Virus record (IMG/VR): IMGVR_UViG_3300037846_000120
DNA: 20,000 bases
Source of the DNA: an uncultured virus (IMG/VR IMGVR_UViG_3300037846_000120)
Taxonomy: Duplodnaviria; Heunggongvirae; Uroviricota; Caudoviricetes
Reading direction: 5' to 3' (one strand)
The notes beneath the pieces are model-generated. The model ran no database searches, was not told the DNA's origin, and saw nothing but the letters and a program-made list of their open reading frames with translations. Below are positions 19 through 19,385 of the stretch, one piece after another (the first letter of the stretch is position 1; each line of letters opens with the position of its first letter). A program made the position numbers and the translations under genes.

Positions 19-2895
19 ATGGCTTCGCCCACTGCCAATCCGTTCGATCAATTCGACGGACCGGCTCCCACCAAACAAGACAATCCGTTCGATCAATTCG
101 ACTTTGGATCGTACCCCTCGGTGATCGCGCGCGGCGTTGCGCGCGGCGCAATCGATACGACCGCGACTGCGCTCAAGGGTTTGCCGGTCATCGAGCGCGC
201 GTCCGAGCCAGGCAACCTCAGTTACCTTGAAGGCTCGGGCGGCGGTACGATGTTCGCGCCACCGGAAAATCCGCAGCCGCAAACTCCGATCACCGAGACG
301 GCGCCGTACAAAGCCGGTCAAGCGGTGCGGCAATTTGGCGAACGCCGTGCTCCGATGACGGCGGCCGAGGAGCAAAGCTTCACCGGCAAAGCAAGTCGCA
401 TGGCGGGCGGTGCAGTTCCCTTCGTTGCTGGCGCGCTGCTCGCGCCTGAAGTTGCGCTGCCGGCAGGCGCCACTGTCTTTGCATCGTCATCGGCGGCTTC
501 ATCGTTCGACGATTTCAAAACGCGCGGCGCCAGCGATGAAGACGCGGCGAAGGGCGCCGGCCTTTCCGCGATCGTCGGCGGCGGTCTCGGTGTGCTGCCG
601 CTCGGCGCGATCCTGGCGCCGGTGCGCCGCACGGCGCCTGGCATGGTCGGCTGGGCGCTGACAAAACTTGAGCAGGCGCTGCAATCGGGCGCGACGTTTG
701 GCACGGTCGGCGAAGCGCAGAAGTTTCTTGATGAGGAAATCAAGCGACACTCTGCCAGCGATTATGTTGGCGCTCCGGTTGATGCCTTCGGGTCAACGAC
801 GCCGCAAGGCGTCGAGGCGGCAACGCCGGCCGGCTACACATTCGATCCTAAGAGCTACGCCGCAAGCATCGCTGCCGGCGGCGCGCTCGGTGTGGTGCAT
901 CCGCTCGCAGCTCCGCGCGTCAGCACGCCGGAAGAAATCGCAGCGTTCAACCGCGCCGCATCGGCTGCACCTGGTGCGGAGAAAACATTCAGCCAGACGC
1001 GCGCCGACATCGACGAGTTTTTGCGAACGCGCGCCGAGCGCGAAGCCGCAGCAGCGCGCGACGCCGGACAACTGCAGCTGCCGCCGCCGGCCGAGCCCGG
1101 CGAATCGGCGCCGCAAGCGGCAGCACCACAACCCGAAGCGCCATCAGGCGGTGAAACATTCCCGTCGTTCGAGGAGCCGGGACGCACGTCGCCGGCGGCG
1201 GCGCCAAATCCATTCGATCAGTTCGAGCAGCCGACTGTGGAGATCCCGAGCGCTGCGCCGGCCGAGCCGCAACCGCCGGCGCCCCGCACCGACGTCGGGC
1301 CGCACGTCCTCCAAGCTCTGCTCGATGACCCGCGGTCGGCGGCTGAAATCCGCGGCTCGATCGACGCGAGGAAGGCGGCCGGTGATCAGGGGTCAACCCC
1401 CATCCAAACGGAGGTCAACCCCCAACCGCTGGCCCAAGCCCTTGACCAGACTCCAGATATTAACCACGTTTCACGTGAAACCCCGGGTAGCAGGGACCTT
1501 CCAGTGGCGCTGGAAGGCCCGGAGCACGTCCTGGCGGGCGCCGAGCACACCGCCGAGCCCACGCCCGGCCAAGCCGACGCGGGCAACTACCGCAAGCGCC
1601 ATGTCACCTGGAATGGCCTCGATCTTACCGTCGAGACCGAGGCCGGCATGGAGCGCCGCGGCACCGGAGCGGACGGCCAGCCCTGGTCGGTTACGCTCAC
1701 TTCACCATACGGCTACATCAAAGGGACAAAAGGCCGCGATGGTGAACAAGTTGACGTTTATCTAGGCCCGCAACCGCAATCCCCCCACGTCTTCATCGTC
1801 GATCAGATCGACCCGGCCACCGGCCGGTTCGACGAGCACAAGGCGCTGGTCGGCTTTCCCGACGAAGCGAGCGCTCGAGCTGCGTACCAACAGGCCTTTT
1901 CCGACAACAGCGCCGGAAGCCGTCTAGGCGCCCTGCAGAGCCTCACCGTTGAGGGGTTCAAGGACTGGCTGCGGAAAGGTCAGCGCCGAGAGCCCCTCGC
2001 TTACAGCGACACTGTAGGGGCGGCGCAGCGCATTGCGCGCGAGATCGGGGTGAACGCGACCGCGGCCGAGGTCGAGGAAGCGGCGCGCATCCACAAGGGC
2101 AGCAATGCTGACCTAACCGATGTCCTGGTCGCAGTGATCGAGCGAAACGCCATTGCCGAAGAAGCGGAATCGGCGGACAGTGTCCAACGTCACGAGGCGA
2201 ACGATGGTCGGCAGGTTGAGCCCGCAGCAGAGAATACTTCTGGCGCACAGCTTGCGCCGGCAGGCGAACCAACCGGGCGTCCCGGTGCGCAGGAAGTTGG
2301 AGAAGCGCCGGCTGGCATCGAACCTGGTGAAGCTGAACGCGATCGACGCGCAGCGGGCGAACGCCTAGACCAGCGCAGCGGTTTTTCTCCCAGCCAATTG
2401 AAGACGCTGCTCGACGAGGAGGATGAAAGCCTCGTCGGCATGTGGCATCAGGCCCGCGAGCCGATGCCGCCCGACGCATCGGATCAGCACAGCGCCTATG
2501 TCAGCCGGATCACAAAGGACCTTGATCGGCTCGGCGTGTTGCACGCCGCAACCGAACAGGAAGTTCGCGATCTCTTGATGGACCGCCGGCTCCGCAAGGA
2601 GACGGTGCAGCCGCGTGGCAGTGAAATTCTCGATCTGCAAGCCGAGCCGGAGCGTCCTGCGCTCACAGCGCCCGTCACGCGTGATGCGGCGCCGGCCGAG
2701 CCTGAGATCACGCCGTTGGGCACAACGGCGGCGACGCTGACCAAGCTCATCCCGAAAATCGCAAAAATGTCGGACGCCGATCGCGCCGACGTGCGCCAGC
2801 GCGTCGCGACGATGATGGCCGACATGGAAGCGGAAGGCCGCAAGATCGCGGAGCACTGCGTAGAGACCGGCGGAAAATTCTCCGTCCGAAGATAG
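19..2895 (+). CDS. Probable ejected/internal virion protein (958 aa) with a phage inorganic pyrophosphatase-like (InPase) domain
   Basis: NPFDQF repeats and Ala/Gly-rich hydrophobic N-terminal helices. Segment ~1552-1980 reads PTPGQADAGNYRK..YGYIKGTKGRDGEQVDV..VDQ..FDEHK..GF..A..AY, the pattern of the InPase domain of phage polyvalent proteins. Confidence 0.8.
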   Translation: MASPTANPFDQFDGPAPTKQDNPFDQFDFGSYPSVIARGVARGAIDTTATALKGLPVIERASEPGNLSYLEGSGGGTMFAPPENPQPQTPITETAPYKAGQAVRQFGERRAPMTAAEEQSFTGKASRMAGGAVPFVAGALLAPEVALPAGATVFASSSAASSFDDFKTRGASDEDAAKGAGLSAIVGGGLGVLPLGAILAPVRRTAPGMVGWALTKLEQALQSGATFGTVGEAQKFLDEEIKRHSASDYVGAPVDAFGSTTPQGVEAATPAGYTFDPKSYAASIAAGGALGVVHPLAAPRVSTPEEIAAFNRAASAAPGAEKTFSQTRADIDEFLRTRAEREAAAARDAGQLQLPPPAEPGESAPQAAAPQPEAPSGGETFPSFEEPGRTSPAAAPNPFDQFEQPTVEIPSAAPAEPQPPAPRTDVGPHVLQALLDDPRSAAEIRGSIDARKAAGDQGSTPIQTEVNPQPLAQALDQTPDINHVSRETPGSRDLPVALEGPEHVLAGAEHTAEPTPGQADAGNYRKRHVTWNGLDLTVETEAGMERRGTGADGQPWSVTLTSPYGYIKGTKGRDGEQVDVYLGPQPQSPHVFIVDQIDPATGRFDEHKALVGFPDEASARAAYQQAFSDNSAGSRLGALQSLTVEGFKDWLRKGQRREPLAYSDTVGAAQRIAREIGVNATAAEVEEAARIHKGSNADLTDVLVAVIERNAIAEEAESADSVQRHEANDGRQVEPAAENTSGAQLAPAGEPTGRPGAQEVGEAPAGIEPGEAERDRRAAGERLDQRSGFSPSQLKTLLDEEDESLVGMWHQAREPMPPDASDQHSAYVSRITKDLDRLGVLHAATEQEVRDLLMDRRLRKETVQPRGSEILDLQAEPERPALTAPVTRDAAPAEPEITPLGTTAATLTKLIPKIAKMSDADRADVRQRVATMMADMEAEGRKIAEHCVETGGKFSVRR
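36..102 (+). repeat. 22-bp perfect direct repeat encoding NPFDQFD (36-57, 81-102); degenerate third copy at 1207-1227
   Basis: caatccgttcgatcaattcgac occurs twice; aatccattcgatcagttcgag (NPFDQFE) at 1207. Confidence 0.9.
1468..1481. promoter_or_regulatory. parS-like palindrome GTTTCACGTGAAAC
   Basis: Perfect 14-bp palindrome equal to the core of the chromosomal parS consensus TGTTTCACGTGAAACA; the two outer bases differ (c...c). Confidence 0.7.
2204..2368 (+). CDS. Nested (+1 frame) 54-aa basic protein inside the 958-aa gene
   Basis: GAGG at 2194-2197, 6 nt before ATG 2204. By hand count 49/54 codons end in G/C, against 24/55 in the host frame over the same stretch. Confidence 0.62.
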   Translation: MVGRLSPQQRILLAHSLRRQANQPGVPVRRKLEKRRLASNLVKLNAIDAQRANA

Positions 2896-4638: not shown

Positions 4639-4840
4639 CAAAAAATTCCTCTGCCTTTATGCCTGTGACGCGCATAATTTCCTGCTCCGCCTCCCGCCAA
4701 ATTATGTACGCGACCGTCATATCTTGAACGGCCAGATCACAACCAAAAAACACGACGCCTTCGTTCGTCGGCAGTGCCGATGCTGGCCCGGCGACAAGCG
4801 CCGCGCCCAGGCCCAACAGGAAATCCCTTCTATCAACCAT
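4628..4840 (-). CDS. 70-aa protein with a twin-arginine (Tat)-type signal peptide
   Basis: From ATG 4840: MVDRRDFLLGLGAALVAGPASA (RRxFL, hydrophobic core, AxA). It fills the otherwise empty 200-bp gap between two + strand genes. Confidence 0.55.
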   Translation of the reverse strand: MVDRRDFLLGLGAALVAGPASALPTNEGVVFFGCDLAVQDMTVAYIIWREAEQEIMRVTGIKAEEFFAKP

Positions 4841-7800
4841 GATCCGCTGCCCCAACTTCCGCTCCGATAAGGTCCGCGAGGACTTCAACGGCGTTTTGCA
4901 ACGCCTCGGCGGCGTAGCTATGTCCGCAGACGACATTGCGCCGCGGCAACCTTATCTCGCCAAGCTCAACGAAACGCAAATCGCAGCGTATCACACCGCC
5001 CATTACCTGTGGAACGCGCACAAGAAGGTGGGAGACATCCTCGACTTTCTGGATGCGCTCGACGCGGTGAACAATGCGCTGGAAGCGCCGGTCAATGCAC
5101 CGGAGCAGCCATCTGATGCAACAAAGCCGCCCGATCACGCAACAGAGCGGCCCAAAAATGCGCCGATAGCGCCTAAAGATGCACAGGCCCCGGAAACGGG
5201 GCCTTCTTCGTCTGAGGCGGCGCCGCTGTCCAATCTGCCGTCGATCGAGCTTGCGCGCTCGCTGCTTGAGCGGTTGCGCGCTGGCAAGCCGATCACCAGC
5301 AAAATCCTCCAGGAAGAAGCCGGCTTGTCCTATGGCGGCAAGCTCTCGGAAGGCCGCTTCGACCGCAAGGACATGGCGGATGCGCTCGAACTCGCGGTGA
5401 ACATGCACATCGCGCAGGATCCCGCGCTGCGCGTCACGGGCGACGACTGGCGAGGCCCGATCGCCAAGCTCGACGCGCTGTTGTCGAAGCTTCCCACTCA
5501 GCGCGTGCGCTCCGATGAACAGGTCAGCTTTCAGCAATTCTCGACGCCGCCCACCTACGCCGCCGCCGCGACCTATGCCGCCAATCTCCGCGAAGGAGAC
5601 ACATTAATTGAACCTTCGGCGGGAACCGGCTCGATCGTCGCGGCGGCGATGCGGCCGGGCGTCAAGATCATCGCCAATGAATTGTCCGAGCGCCGCACGG
5701 CGCTGTTGCGCGCGCTGATCGGCTCTGACGGCAAAGTGTTCCGCGAGAATGCCGAGCAGCTCAACAACGTGCTGCCCGACGACGTCAAGCCGAACGTCGC
5801 GGTGATGAATCCGCCATTCTCGCAAACCGCCGGCCGCATGGGCGACCGCAAGGTGCCGATGGTGGCGCCCATGCACATCGAGCAAGCGCTCAAGCGGCTC
5901 GAAGATGGCGGGCGCCTCGTCGCCATTGTCGGCCGCGGCATGACCATGGGCCAGCCGGGCTACCGGGCCTGGTGGTCGAAAATCTCCGCCGAATACACCG
6001 TGCGCGCCAATATCGGCGTCGACGGCAAGGTGTACGAGAAATACGGCACCACTTTCGGCACTCGTTTACTCGTCATAGATAAGATTGCGCCATCGGGTGA
6101 TTCGAAGCCCGTTTTGGCAGATGCGCAGACGGTCGAAGACCTGATGCGCTTGTTGGAGCCGATCAGAAATGGGCGCTCAGCGGACAATCAAGGAGAACAG
6201 CGCGTCGGTGAACCTGGCGGCGCGCAGGTGGATCATGCTCGCTCTGAAGCAGATGCCGGACCCGCACTACTTGCACCTCCTCCAACTGGCGGAGTGGGGA
6301 CTGACGAACAAGGCGCAGGGCGACTGGCCTCCGAACGATCAGTACGCGCTGGAAGATCAGATACGGCATCTGTTCGGGTGGAGCGCGGCCAACGTGATGA
6401 GTTGGCTTTTCAGCAATCCGAACGGCCCGGACAAGCCGGAGCAACAGGCGAGCCTGCTAAAGCTGCTGCGGGAGACGGACAAGCCGGAGCGCGCCGCGGC
6501 GCACGTGCTCAACGCGATCTACAGCCGTCAGGTGAGCCAAAATCCGGCCTTGCAGCCGGCGGCGAGCGAGTAGAGCTCGAACACGCCGCGCCCGGCACCC
6601 AGGGCGCTTCCGAGATATCCGACAGCCTCTACGACAATTACAAGCCGCAGCGCGTGCGCGTGGCCGGCGCCAAGCCGCATCCGTCGAAACTGGTGGAATC
6701 GGCCGCGATGGCTTCGGTGTCGCCGCCGACGCCGACTTACAAGCCCAACCTGCCGCGCGCGGTTATAGAGAAAGGTCTGCTGTCGGACGCGCAGCTCGAG
6801 GCGGTGGTCTATGCCGGCGAAGCCCACGGCAAGATGCTGCCGGCGGCCGAAGGCGAGACGGCGAAGCGCAAGGGCTATTTCATCGGCGACGGCACCGGCG
6901 TCGGCAAGGGCCGCGAGATCAGCGGTATTTTCCTCGACAACTGGAACCAAGGCCGCCGCCGCGGCGTGTGGGTGTCCGAGAAAAACACCCTGCTCGAAGA
7001 TGCCAAGCGTGATTGGTCCGGGCTGCAACAAAACCCGAACCTCATCTTTAATATCGGCAAGGTGAAGACCGGCGAGCCGATCCAGACCAAGCAAGGCATC
7101 GGCTTTGTCACCTACGACACTCTCAAGGGCGGCATGTCGGATCAGGCCGCGCTCTCGCGCGGCGAATTTGTGCGCAAGCAGCAAGTCAAGGTGAACGGCC
7201 AGAGCGGCAAGGTCGCAAAATTCGGCAAGACGTCCGGCGGTCAGCCAGGGCAGATCACCGTCAATCTCGACAACGGCTCTACCGTTACCGTGCCGAGCAA
7301 CGAGGTCCAGGCGCTCGAAAAGGCCAACATCAAGTCGCGCGTCGATCAGATTGTCGATTGGCTGGGTGAAGATTTCGACGGCGTTATTGCGCTCGACGAA
7401 TCCCACAACATGGCCAACGCGACCGGCGGCAAGGGCGACCGCGGCAAAAAAGACGCGGCGATGAAGGCGATCGCCGGCATGGAATTGCAGAAGCGCTTGC
7501 CCAATGCGCGCGTCGTCTACGATTCGGCGACCGGCGCCACCGAAGTCTCCAATCTCGCCTATGCCGATCGGCTCGGCTTGTGGGGTAGGGGTACTCCATT
7601 CGCTTCACGAGAAGCCTTCGTGACCCAGGTCGAGGAGGGCGGCATTGCGGCGATGGAGTTGATCGCCCGCGACATGAAGGCGCTCGGCCTCTATACCGCG
7701 CGCAACTTGTCCTACGACGGCGTTGAGTACGATCGGCTTGAGCACAAGCTCGACGAAAATCAGCGTGAGATTTACGACACCCTGGCCGAAGCGTGGCAGC

Positions 7801-10800
7801 ATGTGCTGCGCAACATCAACGCGGCGCTGAAAAGCACCAAAGCCGAGAAAGACGGCCGCGCCAAGGGCGCAGCCTATTCGGCATTTTGGGGCGCGCATCA
7901 GCGCTTCTTCAATCAGATCGTCACGGCGATGCAGATGCCGACCGTCATCAAGGCGGTCGAGAAAGACATCGAAGCCGGCCGGCAAGCGGTGCTGCAACTC
8001 ACCAACACCAACGAGGCATCACAGGAGCGCGCCGCCGCCAAGGCTCAGTCGGCTGAGGAAATCGAAGATTTGGACATCACGCCGCGCGACCAGATCATCC
8101 AGCTTGTCGAGCATTCGTTCCCGACCCAAGCCTATGAAGAATATATCGACGACAAAGGCAAAAAGCGCGCCCGACCGGTGCTAAATTCAAAGCGCGAGCC
8201 GGTACAAGATCGCGGCGCCGTTGCAGCGCGCGCGCGCCTGATCGAAGAACTTGCCTCGATCCGGGTGCCGCAAGGCCCGCTCGAAATGATCCTCGATCAC
8301 TTCGGCATCGATACCGTCGCCGAAGTGACCGGCCGCGGCCGGCGCTTTGTGCGCAAGCCCGACGAGAAGACCGGCGAAATGCGCCGCGTCGAGGAAAGCC
8401 GGCCGGGCTCGTCCAACATCGCCGAAACCGACAATTTCCAGGCCGGCAAGAAAAAGGTGCTGGTGTTCTCCGAAGCCGGCGGCACCGGGCGCTCGTATCA
8501 CGCCGACAATACTGCGCCGTCGAAAGACGCGCGGCGCGCACATTACGTGGTGCAGGGCGGCTGGCGGGCCGACAAGGCGGTGCAGGGCCTTGGCCGCACG
8601 CACCGCTCCAATCAGGCGAGCGCGCCACTGGTGCGGCTGCCGACCACGGACCTGCCGGGACAAAAGCGCTTCATTTCCTCGATCGCGCGGCGCCTGGGGC
8701 AACTCGGCGCGCTGACCAAAGGCGAGCGCAAGGCCGGCGACCAGGGCATCTTCAACGCCCGCGACAATCTGGAAAGCATCGAAGCAACGACTGCGCTCAC
8801 GCAGTTTTTCAAAGACGTGGTGAATGGCGCGGTGCCGGACATCACCGTCAATGACTTCGAAGAACAGACCGGCCTCAGTCTGCGACTGACGGACGACGAC
8901 GGCCGGGTCATGGGCATGGCGACCGACTTCCCGCCCATCACGCAATTCCTCAACCGGCTGCTGTCGCTTAAGATCGACATGCAGAACCGCGTCTTTGACG
9001 CATTCTCCGAGCGGCTCGACGCCGTGATCGAAGCGCGCCGCGAGGCCGGCTTGCTCGACGTCGGCATGGAAACCGTCCGCGCCGACAAGATCACCAAGGC
9101 AAGCGAGCAGACCGTGCACACGGTCGAAGGCTCCGGCGCCGAGACGAAATACGTCAAGCTCCAGGTCTCAAAAAAGTTTGTGCCCACCGAATTCGATAAG
9201 GTCGCCTCGAACGAATGGCGGCCGGTCGAAGCCTGGCTCGAAAGCCCAAACGGCAAGGTGTACGCCGCAGCGAAGGCGCCGAGCCTGACGGATAGCAGCG
9301 GCAAGATCATCGATAATTTCCGCCTCGTCAGTCCGGTGTCCGATTCGCGCACCGTGCCGAAACTCAACATCGAGAAGCCCGACAGCAAGTGGAAAAAGAT
9401 CGAGCGCAGCGAGGCGTCGGCGCTCTGGCGCAAGGAGATCGCTGCGGCGCCGGAGTTCATCACGCGTGACATGCACCTGATCACCGGCGCAATTCTGCCG
9501 ATTTGGGACCGGCTCAAAGGCAATCCGCGCGTGGTGCGGCTGCAAACCGACAATGGCGAGCGGCTGATCGGGCGTGTGGTGCCCAACGAAGCCATTGCCG
9601 CCACGCTCAAGGCGCTCGGCGCCGAAGCGCAATTCAGCCGCGTCACGCCGCCAGAACTATTCCATAAGATCGCCGCCGGCGGTCGCGCCACACTGGCGAA
9701 TGGCTGGACCTTGAGCCGGCGCCTCGTCGCCGGCGAGCAGCGCATCGAGCTCAATCCCCGCGGTGTCTCATTCAGCGAGGCCCGGGAGCTTAAGCGCGAC
9801 GGTGTTTTCAGCGAGATCATCGATTACAAGATGCGCTACTTCGTGCCGATGGAGGCGCGGCGCGGCGCCCTTGTCCTCGGCAAGCTGACCGAGTACCGGC
9901 CGATCGCCGACATCCAGGAAGCGGGAGCGGCGCCGGACGACATGGCCGCCGGCGACGAGCCGATGTTCTCGATCCGCGGGACCGCGGCCAAAGACGGCCG
10001 CGAGGGTGCCGTCAAAGCCGAAAGCGACCAACTGGCGGAAGCGGTCGCGCGTCGCATCTTCCCGGAGCTGCGCATCGAACTCGACAAGCTCGGGCTGGAA
10101 GACGTCGACCTCAATCTGCCGGGCAAGCTCACGGCGCGCACCGGCGGCAAGACCTATCTGCTCAACGGGCATTATCTGGATCGAACCATCACGGTCGCGC
10201 TCGATGCCGACAACATCCGGCAGACCATGCACCATGAGGTGTTGCACGCGCTCCGCGATCTCGGGCTGTTCAAGGACGGCGAGTGGGGCATTCTCTCGAC
10301 CAAGGCGCGGCAGGCCTGGCGCAAGCAGTATCCGATCGACCGGCTCTACAGTCACCTGGACGACGAAGGCAAAGACGAGGAAGGCGTCGCCCACGCCTAC
10401 GCCGATTGGGCCGCCGGAAAAGCAACGGTCGATGGCCGTATTGCGCGGCTGTTCAAGCGCATCAAGGCTTTCTTCGAGGCGCTGCGCAACGCGCTGCATG
10501 GCCTTGGCTTCAAGACCGCCGAGGATGTGTTCAAAGACATCCGCTCCGGCGAAGTCGGCCGGCGCGATCGTGCCGGCGTTGGCGGCGAGCCGATGTTCTC
10601 CGTGCGCGACGACGCGGCGCCGGCGGCGCTGAAGGACAACCCCAAGCTCAGCGCCCGCATCCGCGAGCGCATCGAAGCCGCGCTCGACAGCAAGTTCGCG
10701 CACAAATTCATCGAAGGCACGCAAGACCTGTCGCACCCGGTCAAGCTGTTGCAGCGCGACCTTGAGGAGCGCCGCTCCGGCGCTTTCGCGGATCCCGAGG

Positions 10801-13064
10801 ACTTCTATACCAGGAAGCGCCTTTATCCCGGTCGCGTCGGAGCCTGGACCGATACGTTCAACCGCAAACACCTTGATCCGATAGTCAACCTCCTCAAATC
10901 GAATGGCATCAGCCTGCAGGAAGCCAGCGACTACCTCTATGCGTTGCACGCGGCCGAGCGCAACGCTGCCATCGACAAGATCAATCCGGGGCTCGGTGGC
11001 GAAGGCTCGGGCATGTCGAACGATGAGGCCGAGAAAATCCTGGCCGAAGCCAAGCGCGCGGGGAATGCCGCGGCGTTCGACGAGCTGCGCCAGCGCGTCG
11101 ACGGCATCCGCAATCTGATCCTCGACGTGATGGAGAAAAGCGGCCTGGAAAAGCCCGAAGTCATCGCCGAGTGGAAAAAGCGCTACCAAGAATACGTGCC
11201 GCTGCGCGGCTGGGAGGTCGAGCCCGACGACGCGCCGGGCGAATTCCGCGGCGCCGGCGCCGGCTTCAACATCCGCGGCAAAGAGGTCAAGCAGGCGTTC
11301 GGCCGGCGCTCGAAAGCCGATAACCCGCTCGTCAACCTGTTCGACCAGGCGTACCGCACCTTCGACCGCGCCGAGCGCAACCGCTATCTGCAATCGCTGT
11401 TCCGCGCGATCGACGATCTCGGCGAGGACGCCGACGACATCGCCACGCTCGATAAGGGCAAGCCGCGGCGCGAGATCAATCCGCGCACCGGCCTGGTGCG
11501 CACCGTTGAAACCTCAAGCCAGTACGGCAACCCCAAGGCGGTCAATCTCAAATTCGACGGCAATCCGCACTTCATCGTGTTCCGCGATCAGCAGCTCGCC
11601 GAAGCGGTCAAGCGGATGGGCGCCGGATCGCTCGGCATCTTGCAGCCGGTGCTCATCCTACAAAACAAGATGAAGGCGATGTGGACGCACTACTCGCCGG
11701 ACTTCCTGTTTCGCCACTTCATGTTCCGCTACCCGATCGAGGGCGCGCTCAACTCCTTCGAGCAGAAGGAGGGCGGCGCCCACAAGGTCTCACAATACGT
11801 CCGCGAGGCGTTTCCGTTCATGGGCACGGCGAGCAAGGCGATCTTCGCGTCCAATCGCGGCGAGATCAGCAGCGACCCCGAAATCGCCCGGATGCAGAAG
11901 GAGTGGGACATGATGCGCCGCGGCGGTGGCGCCATGATGTTCCGCAACATGCGCGACACCGACCTGACGCGTGAGCACCTGGAAACTCGGCTCAAAGACC
12001 TGTCCGACAGCCCGTTGCAGAACGCGCGCGCCAAGTGGCGGCACGGCGTCGAGGCGATGGATGTTGTCACCAACGCGCTCGACAATGCGCTGCGGCTCGC
12101 CGCATTTTCTTCTGCTCTGAGGCAGGGAAAGACCGTACAGCAGGCGAACTTCATCGCCCGCGAGGCCACCATCGACTTCCAGCTCAAGGGCCTGTGGTCG
12201 AACCTCATGGGCATCCTGTTCCCGTTCGCCAATCCGGCGGTGCAGACCGCAGCGCGGATGACAAAAGCGGTGTCGCGCTCGAAGATCATGCGCCGTGTGT
12301 TCATGGGGACGATGCTGGCGGGTTTCCTGACATCGGCATACAACTATCTCATCGGCGGCGACGACAAGGACGGCACCCCGTTCTTCGACAAAATCCCGGA
12401 GTGGGATCGCCGCCTCAACTTCATCATCCTCAGTCCGATCAAGGATGCGAAGGGCCGGCCCGAGCCGATCAAAATTCCGATGCCGTACAATTGGGCGTTC
12501 CCGCTGATGCTGGGCTACGCCTTCGGCGGTTTCATGTTCGGCAAGGAAGGCCCGCGCAAGCTGATGAGTATGGTGCTGCACTCGGCGCTGGAAACCTTCA
12601 CCCCGCTCGGCTCCGAAGGCAATCTCGCCGCCGAGTTCACGCCGTCGACGCTGCGCCCCGTTACCTACATCTACACCAATCTCGATTGGGCCGGCCGGCC
12701 GGTGCACGCCGATCCGACATTCCAGAAACACCCGAACTCCTATTCAGGGCGCCGGACCACGGGAGAAGGCTGGAAGGACCTGGCCGCGGGCGTCAACACT
12801 GCAACCGGCGGCAGCCCGGCAAAGTCAGGTGTGATCGACATCTACCCGGAAGATTACCGGGAAATGATGGATCAGTTCGTCGGCACACAGCTCCGGCTCG
12901 GGCAGAACGTGTGGGATACGGTGTCGGCGCCGATCAAGGGCGAGTGGCCCGATCCGGGCAAAGTCCCGCTCGGCCGCGTCGTCTTTGGCACCGATTACGA
13001 TGCCGCCGATCGCGCCCGCGGCTATGAGCTGCGCGACAAGCTCAAGCATCCGTGGAAACGCTGA
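4839..13064 (+). CDS. Giant DarB-like polyvalent protein (2741 aa): N6-adenine MTase, Strawberry-notch-type SF2 helicase, zincin metallopeptidase-like domain, LPD38-like C-terminus
   Basis: QQFSTPP (~5532), EPSAGTG (5610), NPPF (5808); GDGTGVGKGRE (6885), DESH (7395), SATG (7524), GWRADKAVQGLGRTHRSNQ (~8560-8615); HEVLH (10233) with downstream EE; IPEWDR..NF...KIPMPY (~12390-12490). Confidence 0.88.
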   Translation: MIRCPNFRSDKVREDFNGVLQRLGGVAMSADDIAPRQPYLAKLNETQIAAYHTAHYLWNAHKKVGDILDFLDALDAVNNALEAPVNAPEQPSDATKPPDHATERPKNAPIAPKDAQAPETGPSSSEAAPLSNLPSIELARSLLERLRAGKPITSKILQEEAGLSYGGKLSEGRFDRKDMADALELAVNMHIAQDPALRVTGDDWRGPIAKLDALLSKLPTQRVRSDEQVSFQQFSTPPTYAAAATYAANLREGDTLIEPSAGTGSIVAAAMRPGVKIIANELSERRTALLRALIGSDGKVFRENAEQLNNVLPDDVKPNVAVMNPPFSQTAGRMGDRKVPMVAPMHIEQALKRLEDGGRLVAIVGRGMTMGQPGYRAWWSKISAEYTVRANIGVDGKVYEKYGTTFGTRLLVIDKIAPSGDSKPVLADAQTVEDLMRLLEPIRNGRSADNQGEQRVGEPGGAQVDHARSEADAGPALLAPPPTGGVGTDEQGAGRLASERSVRAGRSDTASVRVERGQRDELAFQQSERPGQAGATGEPAKAAAGDGQAGARRGARAQRDLQPSGEPKSGLAAGGERVELEHAAPGTQGASEISDSLYDNYKPQRVRVAGAKPHPSKLVESAAMASVSPPTPTYKPNLPRAVIEKGLLSDAQLEAVVYAGEAHGKMLPAAEGETAKRKGYFIGDGTGVGKGREISGIFLDNWNQGRRRGVWVSEKNTLLEDAKRDWSGLQQNPNLIFNIGKVKTGEPIQTKQGIGFVTYDTLKGGMSDQAALSRGEFVRKQQVKVNGQSGKVAKFGKTSGGQPGQITVNLDNGSTVTVPSNEVQALEKANIKSRVDQIVDWLGEDFDGVIALDESHNMANATGGKGDRGKKDAAMKAIAGMELQKRLPNARVVYDSATGATEVSNLAYADRLGLWGRGTPFASREAFVTQVEEGGIAAMELIARDMKALGLYTARNLSYDGVEYDRLEHKLDENQREIYDTLAEAWQHVLRNINAALKSTKAEKDGRAKGAAYSAFWGAHQRFFNQIVTAMQMPTVIKAVEKDIEAGRQAVLQLTNTNEASQERAAAKAQSAEEIEDLDITPRDQIIQLVEHSFPTQAYEEYIDDKGKKRARPVLNSKREPVQDRGAVAARARLIEELASIRVPQGPLEMILDHFGIDTVAEVTGRGRRFVRKPDEKTGEMRRVEESRPGSSNIAETDNFQAGKKKVLVFSEAGGTGRSYHADNTAPSKDARRAHYVVQGGWRADKAVQGLGRTHRSNQASAPLVRLPTTDLPGQKRFISSIARRLGQLGALTKGERKAGDQGIFNARDNLESIEATTALTQFFKDVVNGAVPDITVNDFEEQTGLSLRLTDDDGRVMGMATDFPPITQFLNRLLSLKIDMQNRVFDAFSERLDAVIEARREAGLLDVGMETVRADKITKASEQTVHTVEGSGAETKYVKLQVSKKFVPTEFDKVASNEWRPVEAWLESPNGKVYAAAKAPSLTDSSGKIIDNFRLVSPVSDSRTVPKLNIEKPDSKWKKIERSEASALWRKEIAAAPEFITRDMHLITGAILPIWDRLKGNPRVVRLQTDNGERLIGRVVPNEAIAATLKALGAEAQFSRVTPPELFHKIAAGGRATLANGWTLSRRLVAGEQRIELNPRGVSFSEARELKRDGVFSEIIDYKMRYFVPMEARRGALVLGKLTEYRPIADIQEAGAAPDDMAAGDEPMFSIRGTAAKDGREGAVKAESDQLAEAVARRIFPELRIELDKLGLEDVDLNLPGKLTARTGGKTYLLNGHYLDRTITVALDADNIRQTMHHEVLHALRDLGLFKDGEWGILSTKARQAWRKQYPIDRLYSHLDDEGKDEEGVAHAYADWAAGKATVDGRIARLFKRIKAFFEALRNALHGLGFKTAEDVFKDIRSGEVGRRDRAGVGGEPMFSVRDDAAPAALKDNPKLSARIRERIEAALDSKFAHKFIEGTQDLSHPVKLLQRDLEERRSGAFADPEDFYTRKRLYPGRVGAWTDTFNRKHLDPIVNLLKSNGISLQEASDYLYALHAAERNAAIDKINPGLGGEGSGMSNDEAEKILAEAKRAGNAAAFDELRQRVDGIRNLILDVMEKSGLEKPEVIAEWKKRYQEYVPLRGWEVEPDDAPGEFRGAGAGFNIRGKEVKQAFGRRSKADNPLVNLFDQAYRTFDRAERNRYLQSLFRAIDDLGEDADDIATLDKGKPRREINPRTGLVRTVETSSQYGNPKAVNLKFDGNPHFIVFRDQQLAEAVKRMGAGSLGILQPVLILQNKMKAMWTHYSPDFLFRHFMFRYPIEGALNSFEQKEGGAHKVSQYVREAFPFMGTASKAIFASNRGEISSDPEIARMQKEWDMMRRGGGAMMFRNMRDTDLTREHLETRLKDLSDSPLQNARAKWRHGVEAMDVVTNALDNALRLAAFSSALRQGKTVQQANFIAREATIDFQLKGLWSNLMGILFPFANPAVQTAARMTKAVSRSKIMRRVFMGTMLAGFLTSAYNYLIGGDDKDGTPFFDKIPEWDRRLNFIILSPIKDAKGRPEPIKIPMPYNWAFPLMLGYAFGGFMFGKEGPRKLMSMVLHSALETFTPLGSEGNLAAEFTPSTLRPVTYIYTNLDWAGRPVHADPTFQKHPNSYSGRRTTGEGWKDLAAGVNTATGGSPAKSGVIDIYPEDYREMMDQFVGTQLRLGQNVWDTVSAPIKGEWPDPGKVPLGRVVFGTDYDAADRARGYELRDKLKHPWKR
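6169..6573 (+). CDS. Nested (+1 frame) 134-aa hypothetical protein inside the giant gene's MTase-helicase linker
   Basis: GGAG at 6155-6158 before ATG 6169. About 115/134 codons end in G/C (hand count). Globular helical-type sequence with W/L/Y patterning, whereas the host frame here is G/A/R/E-rich with many A/T-ending codons. Confidence 0.78.
   Translation: MGAQRTIKENSASVNLAARRWIMLALKQMPDPHYLHLLQLAEWGLTNKAQGDWPPNDQYALEDQIRHLFGWSAANVMSWLFSNPNGPDKPEQQASLLKLLRETDKPERAAAHVLNAIYSRQVSQNPALQPAASE
9951..10600 (+). repeat. 19/20-bp direct repeat (9951-9970, 10581-10600) encoding EPMFS, bracketing the zincin module
   Basis: ggcgacgagccgatgttctc vs ggcggcgagccgatgttctc, 630 bp apart and in frame. 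Confidence 0.85.
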
Positions 13065-13696: not shown

Positions 13697-13905
13697 GGTG
13701 CGGGCCTCACTGTCTCCATCATAAAATGGAGAATGCAAAACGGAAGGTGCAAGTCCAATCCTGTCCGATGGGCGATAAAGCCAACTTCGATAATCGGCAC
13801 AAAGCCGCCCGTCATCCAGACATGCAGCCTTCCGAATTTGCGCTTCCAGATGATGTCAAGCGGCGGAGAGGGCCGGAAGCCGAAGGTGATTAAAAAGTGC
13901 GTCAT
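13693..13905 (-). CDS. 70-aa hydrophobic hypothetical protein
   Basis: GAGGAG RBS; ATG 13905 overlaps the ATPase stop; its own stop overlaps the next ATG. Confidence 0.55.
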   Translation of the reverse strand: MTHFLITFGFRPSPPLDIIWKRKFGRLHVWMTGGFVPIIEVGFIAHRTGLDLHLPFCILHFMMETVRPAP

Positions 13906-15803
13906 GCCGCTCTCCTCTCCGGGAACAACCGGCCATCGGCGCGCACGCGCCCCTGGCCCGAATAGACCAAAAAGCCCATGTCCTTCAGCCGCACAATCGC
14001 GTGCTTCACCGAATTGGTGTGGATCGAATAACCGCACGTACTCGCCAACTCCTCGCGGGTGCAGTCGTCGGGGTAGATGGTGGTGAGCTGGGTCAGCAGC
14101 TTGTCGGTCGGCTCACCGAGAATGGCGGTGATCCGCTCACGCATTTCGGTGGCGTCGCTCGGCGCTGCCGCCGCATCGGCCTGCGCTCCGCCGGCAGGCG
14201 TCAATTTCAGCGTGCCGTTGCCATACTCGATCAAGCCCTCGTTCTTGAGCGCGACAATCGCCGCCTTCACTGAGTTGGTGTGCAGGCTATAGCGCGCCAT
14301 GAGGGCTACGAGTTCGCGCGCCGGCTCATAGACACCCAGGGCTTGCAGCTCGGCGAGCGCGTTGAGGAGCTTTTGGTTGATGCTGCCGTCGCCGACCGGC
14401 GCCGACTGACCGACAAGCCTTGGTTTCGCGGCCATAGGCGCTCCCGCTGGCAAAGACTTGACGCTGAACGGCTCGTTGGAGCGAACCTCCACTTTGACCT
14501 TCACATCCTCGTCGGCGTTCTCGATAAATTTCTTGAGCTTCGCCGCGAGGCGTTGCGCTTCGAGGCGGAGCGCATCGAATTCCTTCCCGCGCCGCCCAAG
14601 ATGTGCCGCGATGAGCCGCTCAACCTCTTTCGATCCGGCCAGGATCGCCTTTTCCACGTCCGCCTTGTTCACGGGTTCGCCGCTGACCTGGAACAAGCCC
14701 TTTGCGTTGATCTCGACAATGAACTTCATGGCCGCCTCCATCGCCGCGATGAGCGGCGCGATGCTTCTCTTCGCCTCGGTGATCGCGCGCTGCTCGATCT
14801 TTTTGAGCGCACCCTTGTCCGGCGGCTTCGTGGCGCCCGCGGCTGCGGTGACTTGCTTTTCGAGCTTCGCCTTTTCCGCCTGCAGCGTGGCGATCGCCGT
14901 GCGCAGCGCCTTCGGATCATCGGCCTTGTTTTTCTCGATGACGGCCGCGAGCTTGCTTTTGACTTCATCGAGATCGACCGAGGCCCAGCCCTTGAGTTTG
15001 CCCTTGCGTTGCGCCTGCGGCTTGAAGCTGTCGTAGGTCTTGAACATCGGAAAATCGATCAGCTTCGGTCCGAAGCCGATTTCCGGTGACCACACCCAGC
15101 CCTGCGTGCGCTGCATCTGCGCCAGGCTGTCGAGGACTTGCTTGCCGAGCGCCGGATCGCCGCAGCCGTCGATCCAGTCCTTGTCGGCGTCGCGATCGAG
15201 CTTATGAACGACCCGCAACGCGAACAGGGTTTCGTGCGAGGTGAGAAAGTCCTTGTGGACCTTCTGCGGCCGTTGCGACGCTGACAGCAACAACAGACCC
15301 ATGCCGGAGCCTTCGCTGGCGATCCGATTGGCCCAATGCAGCATTTCGCCGGCTTGCGGGTTCATGATCTTTCCCTGCGGCGCAAAGTTATGGCACTCGT
15401 CGATGACCAGCCAGCGGTGGCCCTTTGTCAGCTTGAACAGCGTCTCGGCGAAGCTGATGAAAAACTCGGTGCGCTCGCCGACGCGCCATCCTTTCAGATC
15501 GATGATGTAGGGGCGGTTGGCTGCGGCAACGAGTTCGGCCACTTCCTTGCCGGAGTGGCGGTCGATCGGCACGTCGGCGTGCTCGCCGCCGAAGATGACC
15601 ACCTTGTAGCCAGCGCTCTTGCCATCGGCCGACGATTTGATGCCCCACCAATCGCCCTTGGGGTCGATGATGCCGACTGGCTTGTTGTTGTCGAGCAGGT
15701 ACTCGACGATCAGGCGCAATTTGGAGGACTTGCCCGAGCGCGTTTTGCCGAGAAACACCGCGCTCTGATCCAGCACGGCAACCGGGAATGGGAGTTTGCT
15801 CAT
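13902..15803 (-). CDS. HerA/FtsK-superfamily (DUF87-like) ATPase with coiled coil and two C-terminal winged-helix-like repeats, 633 aa
   Basis: Walker A GKTRSGKS, IIDPKGDW, Walker B LVIDECH, SQRP; repeated RE..A....YS[LI]HTNSVK.AIV.LK..G...Y. Confidence 0.82.
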   Translation of the reverse strand: MSKLPFPVAVLDQSAVFLGKTRSGKSSKLRLIVEYLLDNNKPVGIIDPKGDWWGIKSSADGKSAGYKVVIFGGEHADVPIDRHSGKEVAELVAAANRPYIIDLKGWRVGERTEFFISFAETLFKLTKGHRWLVIDECHNFAPQGKIMNPQAGEMLHWANRIASEGSGMGLLLLSASQRPQKVHKDFLTSHETLFALRVVHKLDRDADKDWIDGCGDPALGKQVLDSLAQMQRTQGWVWSPEIGFGPKLIDFPMFKTYDSFKPQAQRKGKLKGWASVDLDEVKSKLAAVIEKNKADDPKALRTAIATLQAEKAKLEKQVTAAAGATKPPDKGALKKIEQRAITEAKRSIAPLIAAMEAAMKFIVEINAKGLFQVSGEPVNKADVEKAILAGSKEVERLIAAHLGRRGKEFDALRLEAQRLAAKLKKFIENADEDVKVKVEVRSNEPFSVKSLPAGAPMAAKPRLVGQSAPVGDGSINQKLLNALAELQALGVYEPARELVALMARYSLHTNSVKAAIVALKNEGLIEYGNGTLKLTPAGGAQADAAAAPSDATEMRERITAILGEPTDKLLTQLTTIYPDDCTREELASTCGYSIHTNSVKHAIVRLKDMGFLVYSGQGRVRADGRLFPERRAA

Positions 15804-15813
15804 TTTCGCCCCT

Positions 15814-17760
15814 TTAAGCCGCCGCTATACCGGGCGCTGGTACGCTTTTGGACTTCGTCACGCGTGACGTGAACAGCGGCAATCCCTTCGGGGGTTTGAG
15901 CTTGCCGCTCGATTTGATGTTGGCCCGCTTCTTTTCCTCGGGGCCCATGCGCTGCCGCGCAACTCTCGCCTCTGCCATGGCGGAGTATTTCGGATTGATC
16001 TCGATCAGGATGGAGTTGCGGCCGTTCTCTTCGGCGACAAGGGCGGTGGTGCCGGCGCCGCCAAACGGATCGAGCACAATGCCGCCCTTCGGACAGCCGG
16101 CGAGAATGCACGGCTCGATCAGCGCCGGCGGGAAGGTGGCGAAATGAGCTTCCTTGAACGGCTTGGTGGCGATCGACCACACGGTGCGCTTGTTGCGCAT
16201 CATGACGAGATCGGCCGAGCCAAGGTGCAGATCAAAGTTGGCGTTGTTCTTTGGCCGCGGGCCGTCCTGGATATAGTCGCCGCTGTGCTGCGCGGCTTTG
16301 CGCCAGCCGGCGCCGCGGCCCATCCGGGTTGCGGGCTTTAAGTGCTGCTCGAGGCGGCCGTTGTCCTTCTCGTGCGGCACCCGTTTGACGTGGAACCGCG
16401 AGTTCGGGCCTCCCGGCTTGAACTGCGCGGGCAAAACCCGCCGTTGGCCAACGGCGTCTTGCCGGCGGCCGTCGCGGTGCACCGAGCCGTGATGCCCTTC
16501 GCCTTCATCCCAACCCGCCGGCGTCGGGAGCCGGCCGGCGACCGGCGAGCCGATGGCGATGCCATGAGGCTTCCCGGATAGATCGGCGCCGTTGGAGTGC
16601 TTGTGCTCCTTCGCTCGGCCGCGCGCAGCTCGAGCGTGGCTGTCCGGCGATGACGGCTCCATGATCGCGGCATAGTCGTAGTAGTAATCGAAGCCGCTCC
16701 ACAGATTGAATTTGAACCAACGCTTCTTCCAGGTGTTGCCGGGCGGCTGTGTCGCCACCACCACCCGCGTTTTCCGATTCCGCCAGCGCCATTGCGGCTC
16801 CGGCTTCTCGAAGCGCCATTCGCCGGTCTCGTCATGGCGCCAGCACAGCGTGTTGGCCGACTTGGCGAACAGGAAAAGGAATTCGTGCGCCCTGGTCGGC
16901 CGGTCATAGACCGATTCCGGCATCGGGTTTTTCTTGTGCCACACGATGTCGCAACGCAGATACCAGCCGTCGTCTTGGAGCGCGAAGGCGACGCGCCACG
17001 GCATCCCGGCCAGGTCCTTGAATTTGAGCCCTGGCTGCGGTTGCCGGTTCGGTTGCCAACGCGGCCCGTAGCTCACGCCGTCGTTGCTGTCGCCCCGCTG
17101 TGCCCGATTGGAGCCCTTCTTGAGTTCGTGCTTCGAGCCCTTGCCGCGCTCGCCGTCGATCGCGCGGCCGCGGTAGCCCCAATCGACGGTGCGCTCTCCA
17201 TTGTTCGTCTTGCTGCTGCCGCCCGGCGACTTAAACGTGTCGAACGGCTTGTCCCGGAAGGTGTGATCCCACCCTTCCGTCTTGTAGCGATCGGCGGTCC
17301 ACCCGGCACGGTAGGTAGAGTAGCAGTCGCCCATGTTGAGCCAGAGCGTGCCGTCGTCGCGGAGCACCCGCCACACTTCCCGGAAAATCTCGACCATGTG
17401 CTCGACGTAGAGCTGATAGGTCGGCTCAAGCCCGAAGCACCCGCGCCAGGCGCCGCAGTGGATGCAGAAGCCGCGCTCGACGATCACGCCGCCGGCCGCG
17501 GCCATGCCTGCTTGCTTGTGGCCGCCGCCCTTCATCCGCTTGCCGAGCACCGCGAGGCCCGCGCCTTTGCGCAGGTCGAGCTTGGTGCGCTCGTCGGCGA
17601 ATTCGTGGACGCATTCGGGATCTCCACCCCAAATCGACGGCGGGATTTTGTAATCGCGCAAGCCCCAATACGGAGGCGAGCACACACAGCAATGGACGGA
17701 CTTCGGCGCCAGCTTGCGCAGCTCGAGCCGGCAATCTCCGGTCAGGATTTGCGTCGTCAT
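15814..17760 (-). CDS. Beta-class amino (N4-C/N6-A) DNA methyltransferase with large insertions, 648 aa
   Basis: GDCR..L, CSPPYWGLRDY, LRDDGTLWLNMGD, IVWHK.NPMPES..DRP, HFATFP..L, VLDPFGGAGTT, IEINP.Y. Start ATG 17760 with GAGG RBS, overlapping the upstream stop. Confidence 0.92.
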   Translation of the reverse strand: MTTQILTGDCRLELRKLAPKSVHCCVCSPPYWGLRDYKIPPSIWGGDPECVHEFADERTKLDLRKGAGLAVLGKRMKGGGHKQAGMAAAGGVIVERGFCIHCGAWRGCFGLEPTYQLYVEHMVEIFREVWRVLRDDGTLWLNMGDCYSTYRAGWTADRYKTEGWDHTFRDKPFDTFKSPGGSSKTNNGERTVDWGYRGRAIDGERGKGSKHELKKGSNRAQRGDSNDGVSYGPRWQPNRQPQPGLKFKDLAGMPWRVAFALQDDGWYLRCDIVWHKKNPMPESVYDRPTRAHEFLFLFAKSANTLCWRHDETGEWRFEKPEPQWRWRNRKTRVVVATQPPGNTWKKRWFKFNLWSGFDYYYDYAAIMEPSSPDSHARAARGRAKEHKHSNGADLSGKPHGIAIGSPVAGRLPTPAGWDEGEGHHGSVHRDGRRQDAVGQRRVLPAQFKPGGPNSRFHVKRVPHEKDNGRLEQHLKPATRMGRGAGWRKAAQHSGDYIQDGPRPKNNANFDLHLGSADLVMMRNKRTVWSIATKPFKEAHFATFPPALIEPCILAGCPKGGIVLDPFGGAGTTALVAEENGRNSILIEINPKYSAMAEARVARQRMGPEEKKRANIKSSGKLKPPKGLPLFTSRVTKSKSVPAPGIAAA

Positions 17761-18299
17761 GCCGCGGCCTCGACCGAATATCGGGGAGTGTCGCCGCGCA
17801 CGCGCGCCGCCATCGCCTCGGTATCGTGCGAGAAGCCCCAAATGACCTTGCGCCGGCCGCTGCGTCCGCCGCGCGGATCAGTCCCCGAGCTTGACACGCC
17901 GAGCTTGATCCAGCCGTCGAAGCGGTAGAGCCCGCCGGTGTGCTCCACAGCGTCCTGGTACGAAATGACCCAGGAATAACCGTGCGCGGCACAGATGGCC
18001 GGGAAGACAAATTCGCGCCACAGCCGGACGATGGCGCGACATAGCGCGGGGCGAGCTGCGCAGACGCGGCCAAGCTCGATGGCCTCGGATCGGTTGAAGC
18101 CGGCGACACGTTCGCGGATGAGCGCCGCGGAGGCGAGCACGCCCACCAGGTCGCCGTTGTGCCGCATCCCATGTAGCCACTCCGGAAAATTCTCGGCGCG
18201 CTCCCATGCGCCCATCTTGTGATCCCAAGCGATGAGACAGCGGTTGAGATCGGGGCGCTCGATCGCGTCGAAGCCGACCAGCGGCGGGAGGAAGCTCAA
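17757..18299 (-). CDS. Mom-like GNAT-fold putative DNA modification enzyme (~180 aa; start uncertain)
   Basis: H.MG, IELGRVC, VISYQD...HTG.LYRFDGW, K..W resemble the Mu Mom/XF1762-like pattern (EL.R, SY.D...G..Y.A..W). TTG 18299 preferred because the ORF-track start at 18398 lies inside the att core. Confidence 0.6.
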   Translation of the reverse strand: MSFLPPLVGFDAIERPDLNRCLIAWDHKMGAWERAENFPEWLHGMRHNGDLVGVLASAALIRERVAGFNRSEAIELGRVCAARPALCRAIVRLWREFVFPAICAAHGYSWVISYQDAVEHTGGLYRFDGWIKLGVSSSGTDPRGGRSGRRKVIWGFSHDTEAMAARVRGDTPRYSVEAAA

Positions 18300-18300
18300 T

Positions 18301-18385
18301 TCAGAATCGGACCCCGCCTTTGCCGGGGGTTTGGCCGGGGGACTGCCCTTGTTCTCAGAATCGGGGTGAGATAAATCAATGACTT
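18301..18385. repeat. Short repeats inside the att arm: tcagaatcgg x2 (18301-18310, 18355-18364), tttg(g)ccggggg tandem (18319-18341), AT-rich ataaatcaatgactt
   Basis: Repeats read directly from the sequence; position next to the att core fits integrase arm-type or accessory binding sites. Confidence 0.5.
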
Positions 18386-18388
18386 GGT

Positions 18389-18416
18389 GCAGGTTCAAAT
18401 CCTGCTGCCCCGACCA
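18389..18416 (+). repeat. att core: 3' fragment of tRNA-Pro (T-arm, acceptor strand, CCA)
   Basis: GCAGG-TTCAAAT-CCTGC-TGCCCCG-A-CCA: perfect T stem-loop; G72/A73 are bacterial tRNA-Pro identity elements; no D or anticodon arm upstream. Confidence 0.88.
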
Positions 18417-18445
18417 TTAGGACCTTCATTCATGGTTGCGACGAG

Positions 18446-18751
18446 ATGACCGCGCGCATCTACCAACCGGCCCGCACCGCGATGCAGTCGGGGACCGCCA
18501 AGACCAAAGAGTGGGTGCTCGACTATGAGCCGGAACAGCCGCGCATGGTCGAGCCGCTGATGGGCTGGACCTCATCGGGCGACATGAAGCAGCAAGTGCG
18601 GCTTGCATTCGAGACCAAGGAAGAGGCGATCGCCTATTGCGAGCGTCACGGCATCGCCTATCAGGTGTTTGAGACCACGCCGGGCAAGCGCGCGCGCATG
18701 TCGTATTCGGATAATTTCGCCTATGGCCGCCGCACGCCCTGGACGCATTGA
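18446..18751 (+). CDS. ETC complex I subunit (NDUFS4/18-kDa-like), host gene
   Basis: ARIYQPARTAMQSG..KTKEW, EPLMGWTSSGDM..QVRL.F.TKEEAIAY, SYSDNF. Confidence 0.95.
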   Translation: MTARIYQPARTAMQSGTAKTKEWVLDYEPEQPRMVEPLMGWTSSGDMKQQVRLAFETKEEAIAYCERHGIAYQVFETTPGKRARMSYSDNFAYGRRTPWTH

Positions 18752-18806
18752 TCCGCCGTAACCGCGGAGAAGCGTGCGCACGGCTGACTCGCGGTCTTCG
18801 TTGACG

Positions 18807-19385
18807 CTACGCTTGCTCGATGAGTCCTCGGATTAACGTGGCCAGCGGTTTCTCGCTGCCGCCAAAACTCTCGATAGTCGCGTCGAGCATGGCGTTGGGA
18901 TCAATCCGTTCCAGAGCAAAACGATGCCCGGCCTGCTCGGCAAGCGCCGTCATAAAGGCCAACTGGGTCCGGCCGTTGCCTTCGCGGAACGGATGGATGG
19001 CGTTCAGATCGGCAAGAAAGTGGGCCGCCTTTTCAGCGAAAGCCTTCGCGTCCAGGCCTGAGAGATTCTTTTGCCTGGCTAGGTCTGCGAAGAGCCGCTC
19101 CAACTCACGGTTTATATTGTCGGGGTGGCAGAAAGGGTTTCCACCCTTCGAGATCCACACGGTCCGCAGCGCCCCGGCCCAGGGGTACACGTCCTGGAAT
19201 AGGTGCCGGTGAATGGCGCGCAAGTGGCCAACATCGAATTTTCCAGCAGGTAAGGGCTCGGCGAACCGTTGCGCGGTGGCCTCCTCCTCGAAGAAATCCA
19301 GGTCCGACTGGGTGCGCAGGTTCGCACGATTTTTGAGGACGGTCGTTCCGGGATAGCAATAGGAGTCGGAGACCGCGTCGTACAT
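18807..19385 (-). CDS. fic: Fic-domain AMPylase toxin (FicT/VbhT-like)
   Basis: Canonical HPFREGNGRTQ; N-terminal YCYPGTTVLKN; IHRHLFQDVYPWAG. Confidence 0.93.
   Translation of the reverse strand: MYDAVSDSYCYPGTTVLKNRANLRTQSDLDFFEEEATAQRFAEPLPAGKFDVGHLRAIHRHLFQDVYPWAGALRTVWISKGGNPFCHPDNINRELERLFADLARQKNLSGLDAKAFAEKAAHFLADLNAIHPFREGNGRTQLAFMTALAEQAGHRFALERIDPNAMLDATIESFGGSEKPLATLIRGLIEQA

Follow-up and report, generated by a model that had tools for sequence, protein, structure and literature searches.

In a 20,000-nucleotide stretch of DNA from an uncultured virus of the Caudoviricetes (IMG/VR record IMGVR_UViG_3300037846_000120), referred to here as the window, an open reading frame (ORF) of 54 residues at 2204-2368 lies wholly inside a longer gene and is read in its +1 frame. 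The longer gene, designated the host gene, encodes a 958-residue prophage protein with an InPase domain and stands beside a gene for a giant polyvalent protein. A first-pass annotation, made from the letters alone, had taken the small ORF for a real overlapped gene that standard annotation would miss. Judged by sequence comparison, 2204-2368 is very probably a genuine protein-coding gene; that proposal is supported by a conserved protein family, by conservation of place at homologous loci, by selection in the +1 frame, and by relatives that stand alone. As this case shows, genes that sit within the flexible linkers of such large phage proteins escape standard annotation. The features on which the argument turns are as follows.

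19..2895, + strand: host gene, 958 residues, from the ORF list and its translation; InPase domain and conserved C-terminal segment
2149..2427, + strand: G+C bias passes from the third to the first host codon position, as seen in sliding segments; the host frame here encodes a linker rich in Glu, Ala, Gly, and Pro
2194..2197, + strand: Shine-Dalgarno (SD)-like GAGG, six bases 5' of the nested ATG
2204..2368, + strand: nested gene, 54 residues (protein P0002), predicted basic helical hairpin; +1 frame of 19..2895, ATG at 2204, TAG at 2366-2368

Coding signals in the nested frame

The 54 residues and TAG quoted in the first-pass annotation are the exact translation of 2204-2368. The GAGG-N6-ATG arrangement is present as described, with GAGG at 2194-2197, and the ORF occupies the +1 frame of the 958-residue gene, whose own frame is open throughout. 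The window, at 63% G+C, holds 134 ORFs of at least 50 residues, so an open frame of this length is by itself no evidence of a gene. The claimed switch in codon bias was recovered, with G or C at the third position in 49 of 54 codons of the nested frame (0.91) and at a fraction of 0.44 in the host frame. By codon position, G+C is 0.65/0.44/0.91 in the nested frame, 0.91/0.64/0.44 in the host frame over the 165 nucleotides from 2203, and 0.72/0.54/0.70 over the whole host gene.

A frame-specific sliding scan of G+C, one of the checks proposed earlier, covered 5423 segments of 165 nucleotides in seven genes. The difference between first- and third-position G+C in the host frame (GC1-GC3) averaged -0.14, with a standard deviation of 0.15, and the 40 highest segments (0.44-0.53) all start at 2203-2212 or 6165-6429. 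So marked an exchange of bias is uncommon, and its most extreme instances all fall in these two places. A minus-strand ORF at 1958-2479 (173 residues), considered as the source of the signal, was rejected; its G+C by codon position is 0.78/0.65/0.51, and it has no Pfam hit. A promoter and terminator scan of 1700-2500 returned zero sites.

Over the nested region, host residues 729-783 are 89% Glu, Ala, Gly, Pro, Gln, Arg, Asp, Ser, Thr, or Lys and 9% Phe, Trp, Tyr, Ile, Leu, Met, Val, or Cys; the host frame thus encodes a low-complexity linker between domains here. The two frames may be coupled through composition: high third-position G+C in the nested frame (91%) would place G or C at host position 1 and leave few T-initial (stop) codons in the host frame, which would then encode Glu, Ala, Gly, and Pro, a disordered linker able to tolerate the constraint. 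Ribosomes would start internally on the host mRNA at GAGG-N6-ATG and yield a free 54-residue protein, made at the same time as the host protein.

Conservation at homologous loci

Four distinct loci have DNA over the linker: the window itself; L013, a metagenome contig whose host protein is 78% identical to that of the window; L001, from genome G001, whose host protein is 48% identical and whose sequence recurs as several loci; and L053, from genome G494, where a single ORF of more than 3391 residues combines InPase with the helicase. In each, the small ORF is embedded wholly within a longer one on the same strand, in the host +1 frame and downstream of InPase. Its ATG occupies the same position in the alignment of all four, and its stop codon is TAG. 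Stops in the +1 frame of homologous loci, or loss of the ATG and its ribosome-binding site, had been named beforehand as findings that would speak against a gene. These were looked for, and the +1 frame proved open with its ATG in four of four loci, three of which have an SD-like motif (GAGG-N6 in the window, AGAGG-N6 in L013, GGAAGGA-N7 in L001).

Among 38 metagenome loci with similarity to InPase, for which DNA was fetched, only L013 has the ORF. A scan of viral contigs with the host protein recovered the contig of L001 and two partial relatives without the ORF; in the fetched DNA, then, the nested ORF is missing from the other InPase loci, 37 metagenomic and two partial viral.

A programmed +1 frameshift upstream of 2204 could also bring the nested frame into use, making the small domain an alternative C-terminus of a shortened InPase protein. 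Frameshifts are used in phage structural genes. The +1 frame is already open from 2138, 5' of the ATG, its upstream open stretch runs to 28 codons in L013 and 144 in L053, and L053 is without a clear SD motif. Against this, the ATG keeps its aligned place in all four nested copies and an SD-like motif precedes it in three, free members of the family described below begin within a few residues of that place, and the upstream +1 sequence is unconserved, arginine-rich noise. We consider a frameshift very unlikely and retain translation from the internal ATG.

Selection on the two frames

Between the window and L013, substitutions at host codon positions 1/2/3 number 19/13/58 in the InPase region, 7/5/22 in the C-terminal region, and 11/5/3 in the nested region, the last differing from the flanks (26/18/80) with a Fisher p of 1.3e-4. 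Inside the ORF, change sits at the nested third position, which is the host first, and avoids the host third; outside it, change sits at the host third. A frame-specific ratio of nonsynonymous to synonymous substitution rates (dN/dS) had been proposed as a further check, and for this pair the Nei-Gojobori estimates, 0.27 for the nested frame and 1.94 for the host frame, favor the nested gene. The nested frame is also the one with the higher amino-acid identity in all six pairs of loci. It is under purifying selection, with the host frame relaxed over the same interval.

Alignment A1 comprises the 958-residue host protein and its homologs P0003-P0008. The only invariant host residues of the linker in this alignment (A-P-A, G742, and E773) fall within the nested ORF. 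In the window and L001, as far as a direct reading of both frames suggests, host A-P-A-G-E is the same DNA as nested L-R-R-x-A-N.

A protein family with free members

P0002 alone, compared by phmmer with 1.84 billion representative proteins, found 19 relatives at E<=1e-3 (best 6e-11), most of them 52-93 residues long and sharing both its boundaries and the motif LTPQERIRLAQ..RR.A.NL..LN..EA. A profile search of a 5.8-billion-cluster collection brought the family to 56 proteins, and all but two of the named ones are called "hypothetical protein". In other members (P0012, P0018, and P0027) the domain has C-terminal extensions of other kinds, is duplicated in tandem, or comes with a hydrophobic segment and, after it, another domain. 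A profile of 18 divergent members that contains no nested copy matches the +1 frame of the window over the full profile (E 2.1e-20, 71 bits, in a search of 6149 six-frame pieces) and the nested copy in L053 at 3e-22. The homology is therefore not circular. The search for homologs by tblastn that the first-pass annotation had suggested turned out differently by route: P0002 against plasmids and phages gave none, and the relatives came from protein searches. A scan of viral contigs with the family alignment A4 likewise found none, and a conserved 16-mer occurred in 102 viral-contig stretches, with the domain present, in the 109 loci searched, only in the contig already known. In genome surveys, whose first pass scored at most 15 candidates per genome, the family is present in at least 3 of 401 genomes at the level of the order, at least 3 of 401 at that of the family, and at least 1 of 401 at that of the class, with G001 counted each time.

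Two relatives stand alone, as verified on the DNA. One, at L010:8231-8680 in genome G201, opens a 149-residue ORF with the domain, and no longer frame overlaps it. The other, at L054:7400-7642 on the minus strand in genome G658, is flanked on both sides by genes of the opposite strand. Because free relatives exist, a family that is merely a shifted reading of a conserved host segment is excluded. A tree of 54 family rows over 63 columns is mostly unresolved, and the nested copies do not group. Since the nested protein has free homologs, capture of an existing gene is as likely an origin as de novo birth.

Some side observations concern these free forms. In the free form of 149-151 residues (L010 in G201, and P0072), the small domain is followed by a second helical domain, C-terminal and likewise conserved; hhalign found no relation between this domain of P0072 and the P0074 family introduced below. 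L010 lies within an island of G201 that carries a phage-type integrase. Over L054:5422-7642 in G658, the free small gene is tail to tail with a HerA/DUF87 ATPase gene (E 1.8e-38). A HerA-like ATPase is encoded in the window prophage too (13902-15803), which may be coincidence.

These data bear on the possibility that the ORF is a chance or compositional artefact, in which Glu, Ala, Gly, and Pro codons raise host GC1 and suppress stops in the neighboring frame, the apparent family being a shifted host segment. The large number of ORFs in this G+C-rich DNA (the 134 noted above), the strongly biased composition of the host segment (89% in the ten residue types listed), and the fact that a nested or free state is established for few family members all fit that explanation. 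It does not explain why the host frame is the less conserved one in every pair, nor why, inside the ORF, changes fall least often at host third positions (3 of 19, against 80 of 124 in the flanks). Relatives at L010 and L054 have no open host frame, the ORF boundaries are conserved, the predicted fold described below is confident, and a profile free of nested copies still matches the +1 frame. An artefact is barely credible, and we return to a translated nested gene.

Predicted product

The two basic helices proposed for the product agree with an AlphaFold2 model of P0002, a hairpin with helices at 7-21 and 28-53 and a mean predicted local distance difference test (pLDDT) score of 91.8, and with an isoelectric point of 12.0 and a net charge of +9.6. 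The conserved family to which it belongs is one of small, strongly basic proteins with two helices. As a weak suggestion, P0002 may be a basic helical-hairpin module that binds nucleic acid or an acidic partner; equally weakly, it would act together with the second nested protein, P0074, in the production or delivery of polyvalent proteins.

Searches for a function included both proteins. The ESM Atlas gave no usable match for the P0002 family, Foldseek with the models of P0002 and P0074 found nothing in the PDB at E<=0.001, and a VIA wide search with P0074 reached a best Z of 4.6. PDB sequence profiles gave best E-values of only 0.11 and 0.47, PADLOC matched neither family, and P0074 and P0028 had no match among PHROGs. 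Among the Pfam, NCBIfam, and PHROG matches of 21 members of the P0002 family there is no terminase small-subunit model; P0067, so named by one source, is outside those 21.

A second nested gene in the same prophage

The remaining peak of the composition scan falls in the giant gene of the window, with these features.

4839..13064, + strand: second host gene, 2741-residue polyvalent protein; methyltransferase-like region, AAA_34/Strawberry-notch helicase, Helicase_C_4, LPD38
6155..6158, + strand: GGAG ten bases 5' of the second nested ATG; block conserved in all three loci (window, L055, L053)
6169..6573, + strand: second nested gene, 134 residues (P0074), predicted all-alpha; +1 frame of the 2741-residue gene, G+C by codon position 0.64/0.43/0.86

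The same swap of G+C bias that marks 2204-2368 exposed 6169-6573, which is placed between the methyltransferase-like region (residues 221-416) and the AAA_34 match (best stretch 789-981), where the host frame is of low complexity and rich in Gly, Ala, Glu, and Arg. P0074 has 21 homologs of 96-171 residues (best E 9e-42). Giant genes of G001 and G494 (loci L055 and L053) likewise carry the gene in their +1 frame, the context GGAG-N10-ATG is kept in all three loci, and in three of three pairs identity is higher in the nested frame (0.48-0.52) than in the host frame (0.36). The model of P0074 is a six-helix, bundle-like fold with a pLDDT of 80; its relatives are acidic, and the copy in the window is near neutral. 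One database protein, P0014, continues in frame from the small domain into the N-terminal half of that of P0074 (BLASTP E 1e-13), a fusion that links the two nested families. The stop codon is TAG in all four small nested ORFs and in all three copies of the second.

In the host genes scanned, the G+C swap marks nested genes only, save for one further stretch in L001. There, a third candidate nested ORF in the +1 frame, of 83 residues from a GTG, occupies L001:3236-3487 on the plus strand, inside L001:2446-4857; it has an internal ATG followed by lysine-rich, protein-like sequence, and host GC1-GC3 reaches 0.58. This candidate has no Pfam or PHROG match, and the host gene of the window shows no counterpart signal.

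Weight of the evidence

Several observations weigh against a functional gene at 2204-2368 or limit the case for it. L053 is the locus without a clear SD motif, having only AGG that abuts the ATG. In four of six pairs, those at high divergence, nested-frame dN/dS is 0.94-1.63; such values are uninformative because the estimates are saturated, and the argument from selection draws on amino-acid identity and the close pair only. Part of the family may itself consist of nested copies in unsampled relatives of the host. No curated family or solved fold gives the P0002 family a function in Pfam, NCBIfam, PHROG, the ESM Atlas, Foldseek against the PDB, PDB profiles, or PADLOC. The sequencing runs that contain the stretch are all soil-metagenome DNA, with none listed from RNA. 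Finally, the second family is absent from three of the five genomes that hold the small family, so pairing of the two is not obligatory.

Some of these observations would suit a decaying relic, that is, a free gene swallowed when an upstream gene read through into a downstream one, its frame now unexpressed and not yet decayed. Free relatives do exist, a read-through route to embedded genes has been proposed for spanins (PMC6139136), and dN/dS is near 1 at high divergence. A relic would not be expected to retain its start and stop and to remain 40-52% identical in amino acids where the hosts themselves share only about 48% identity, nor to show a dN/dS of 0.27 in a recent pair, and the nested state has outlasted fission and fusion of the host genes (window versus G494). 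We regard a relic as extremely unlikely and a gene still in use as the better account.

A wider proposal is speculative and, in our view, rather doubtful as a whole: that in this soil-prophage lineage the linkers of InPase and polyvalent proteins house hidden +1 genes (two here, possibly a third in a relative) co-made with their hosts, and that the 54- and 134-residue proteins are a working pair, serving either as an adaptor or chaperone that helps the giant proteins to be packed or released, or as a co-delivered nucleic-acid-binding module.

Prophage context and host gene

The window is the right-hand part of a prophage. In the 958-residue host protein, PF18823 (InPase) matches residues 517-651 at E 2.3e-48, and its PHROG matches are large virion or DarB-like proteins. 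By blastn the host gene has no match among plasmids and a single match of 136 bases among phages, within the InPase region. Downstream follow a small gene resembling S-adenosylmethionine (AdoMet) decarboxylase, a 418-residue gene without assigned function, and then the 2741-residue gene; on the opposite strand are the HerA-like ATPase gene at 13902-15803 and a DNA methylase gene. The features of a polyvalent-protein locus were found here, namely InPase together with AAA_34, Helicase_C_4, and LPD38 in large prophage proteins. Iyer et al. 2017 (PMC5512222) place InPase and LPD38 among the phage-type polyvalent proteins and consider these likely to be packaged in the virion. At the syntenic locus in G001, a phage capsid protein and a lysozyme are encoded upstream, and the G001 contig that carries L001 is also present in IMG/VR.

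The likely right end of the prophage is at 17757-19385. A gene on the minus strand (17757-18398) encodes a Mom-like DNA-modification protein (PHROG E 8e-8), and after it come a cellular-looking NDUS4-family gene (18446-18751) and a Fic/DOC gene on the minus strand (18807-19385). Among host homologs, P0003 (698 residues) is 80% identical over its matched part and has an unrelated, arginine-rich tail that ends shortly past the nested region; this tail may reflect a frame change or a gene-calling effect in its contig.

Significance and comparison with known systems

Two conserved families without a Pfam, NCBIfam, or PHROG model lie out of frame inside genes that pipelines call as single long ORFs. 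To our knowledge, well-supported same-strand nested genes with free homologs are uncommon beyond the lysis cassette. A simple detection rule follows the G+C bias: where it shifts locally, within a long ORF, from the third codon position to the first, a nested gene may lie. The rule found both genes here and found them also in two other prophages. Polyvalent proteins are thought to be phage counter-defense weapons, and hidden partners made along with them could bear on their packing, processing, or control. With both free and nested members, the family is a usable case for comparing embedding by read-through capture with overprinting. If the pattern is general, phage annotation would have a systematic blind spot in the linkers of polyvalent proteins, and these linkers would be sites of gene capture or birth.

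The closest architectural parallel is the embedded spanin, exemplified by Rz1 of lambda, which is read in the +1 frame of Rz. There, too, a longer gene fully contains a small same-strand gene that is out of frame and has its own SD motif and start, and the P0002 family resembles spanins further in having both nested and free members. Embedded spanins are likewise routinely overlooked by gene callers according to PMC6139136, which counts 182 embedded, 228 overlapped, and 118 separated arrangements among 528 spanin systems. Unlike spanins, P0002 has no signal sequence and is predicted to be a soluble basic hairpin, and the gene around it encodes an InPase-domain protein from a prophage with polyvalent proteins rather than an inner-membrane lysis protein. 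Identity as an o-spanin was rejected, since neither P0002 nor any of the four nested copies has a cysteine and so none has a lipobox. An Rz-like PHROG is touched by only one of 21 family members, at E 0.055, with no sign of a lysis role.

Short helical proteins of PF09720 (Unstab_antitox) and TIGR02574 are similar in length and in a first helix with an L-[ST]-P-x-E-R..LA-like motif. Weak matches to PF09720 occur in 5 of 21 members and to TIGR02574 in 4 of 21, with best E-values of 1.3e-3 (Pfam) and 1.6e-3 (NCBIfam). Membership was rejected: P0002 itself has no hit at E<=1, and there is no adjacent toxin partner.

In overprinted genes of viruses and bacteria as described in PMC8227390 and PMC6195259, both frames of one DNA stretch are coding, as here, and disorder-promoting residues abound in one of the products. 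The present case differs in that the nested product is the better conserved and structured one and the host product is disordered. The host genes themselves fit the polyvalent proteins of PMC5512222 in carrying InPase, AAA_34/Strawberry-notch helicase, and LPD38. The main text of that paper uses "overlapping" and "frameshift" zero times and does not describe genes hidden in linkers, and a full-text literature search on polyvalent proteins together with overlapping genes turned up only work on an unrelated phage; on these grounds we call the nested genes undescribed. The embedded architecture is thus known, and what is new is the type of host, the use of its linker, the pair of hidden genes, and two unnamed protein families.

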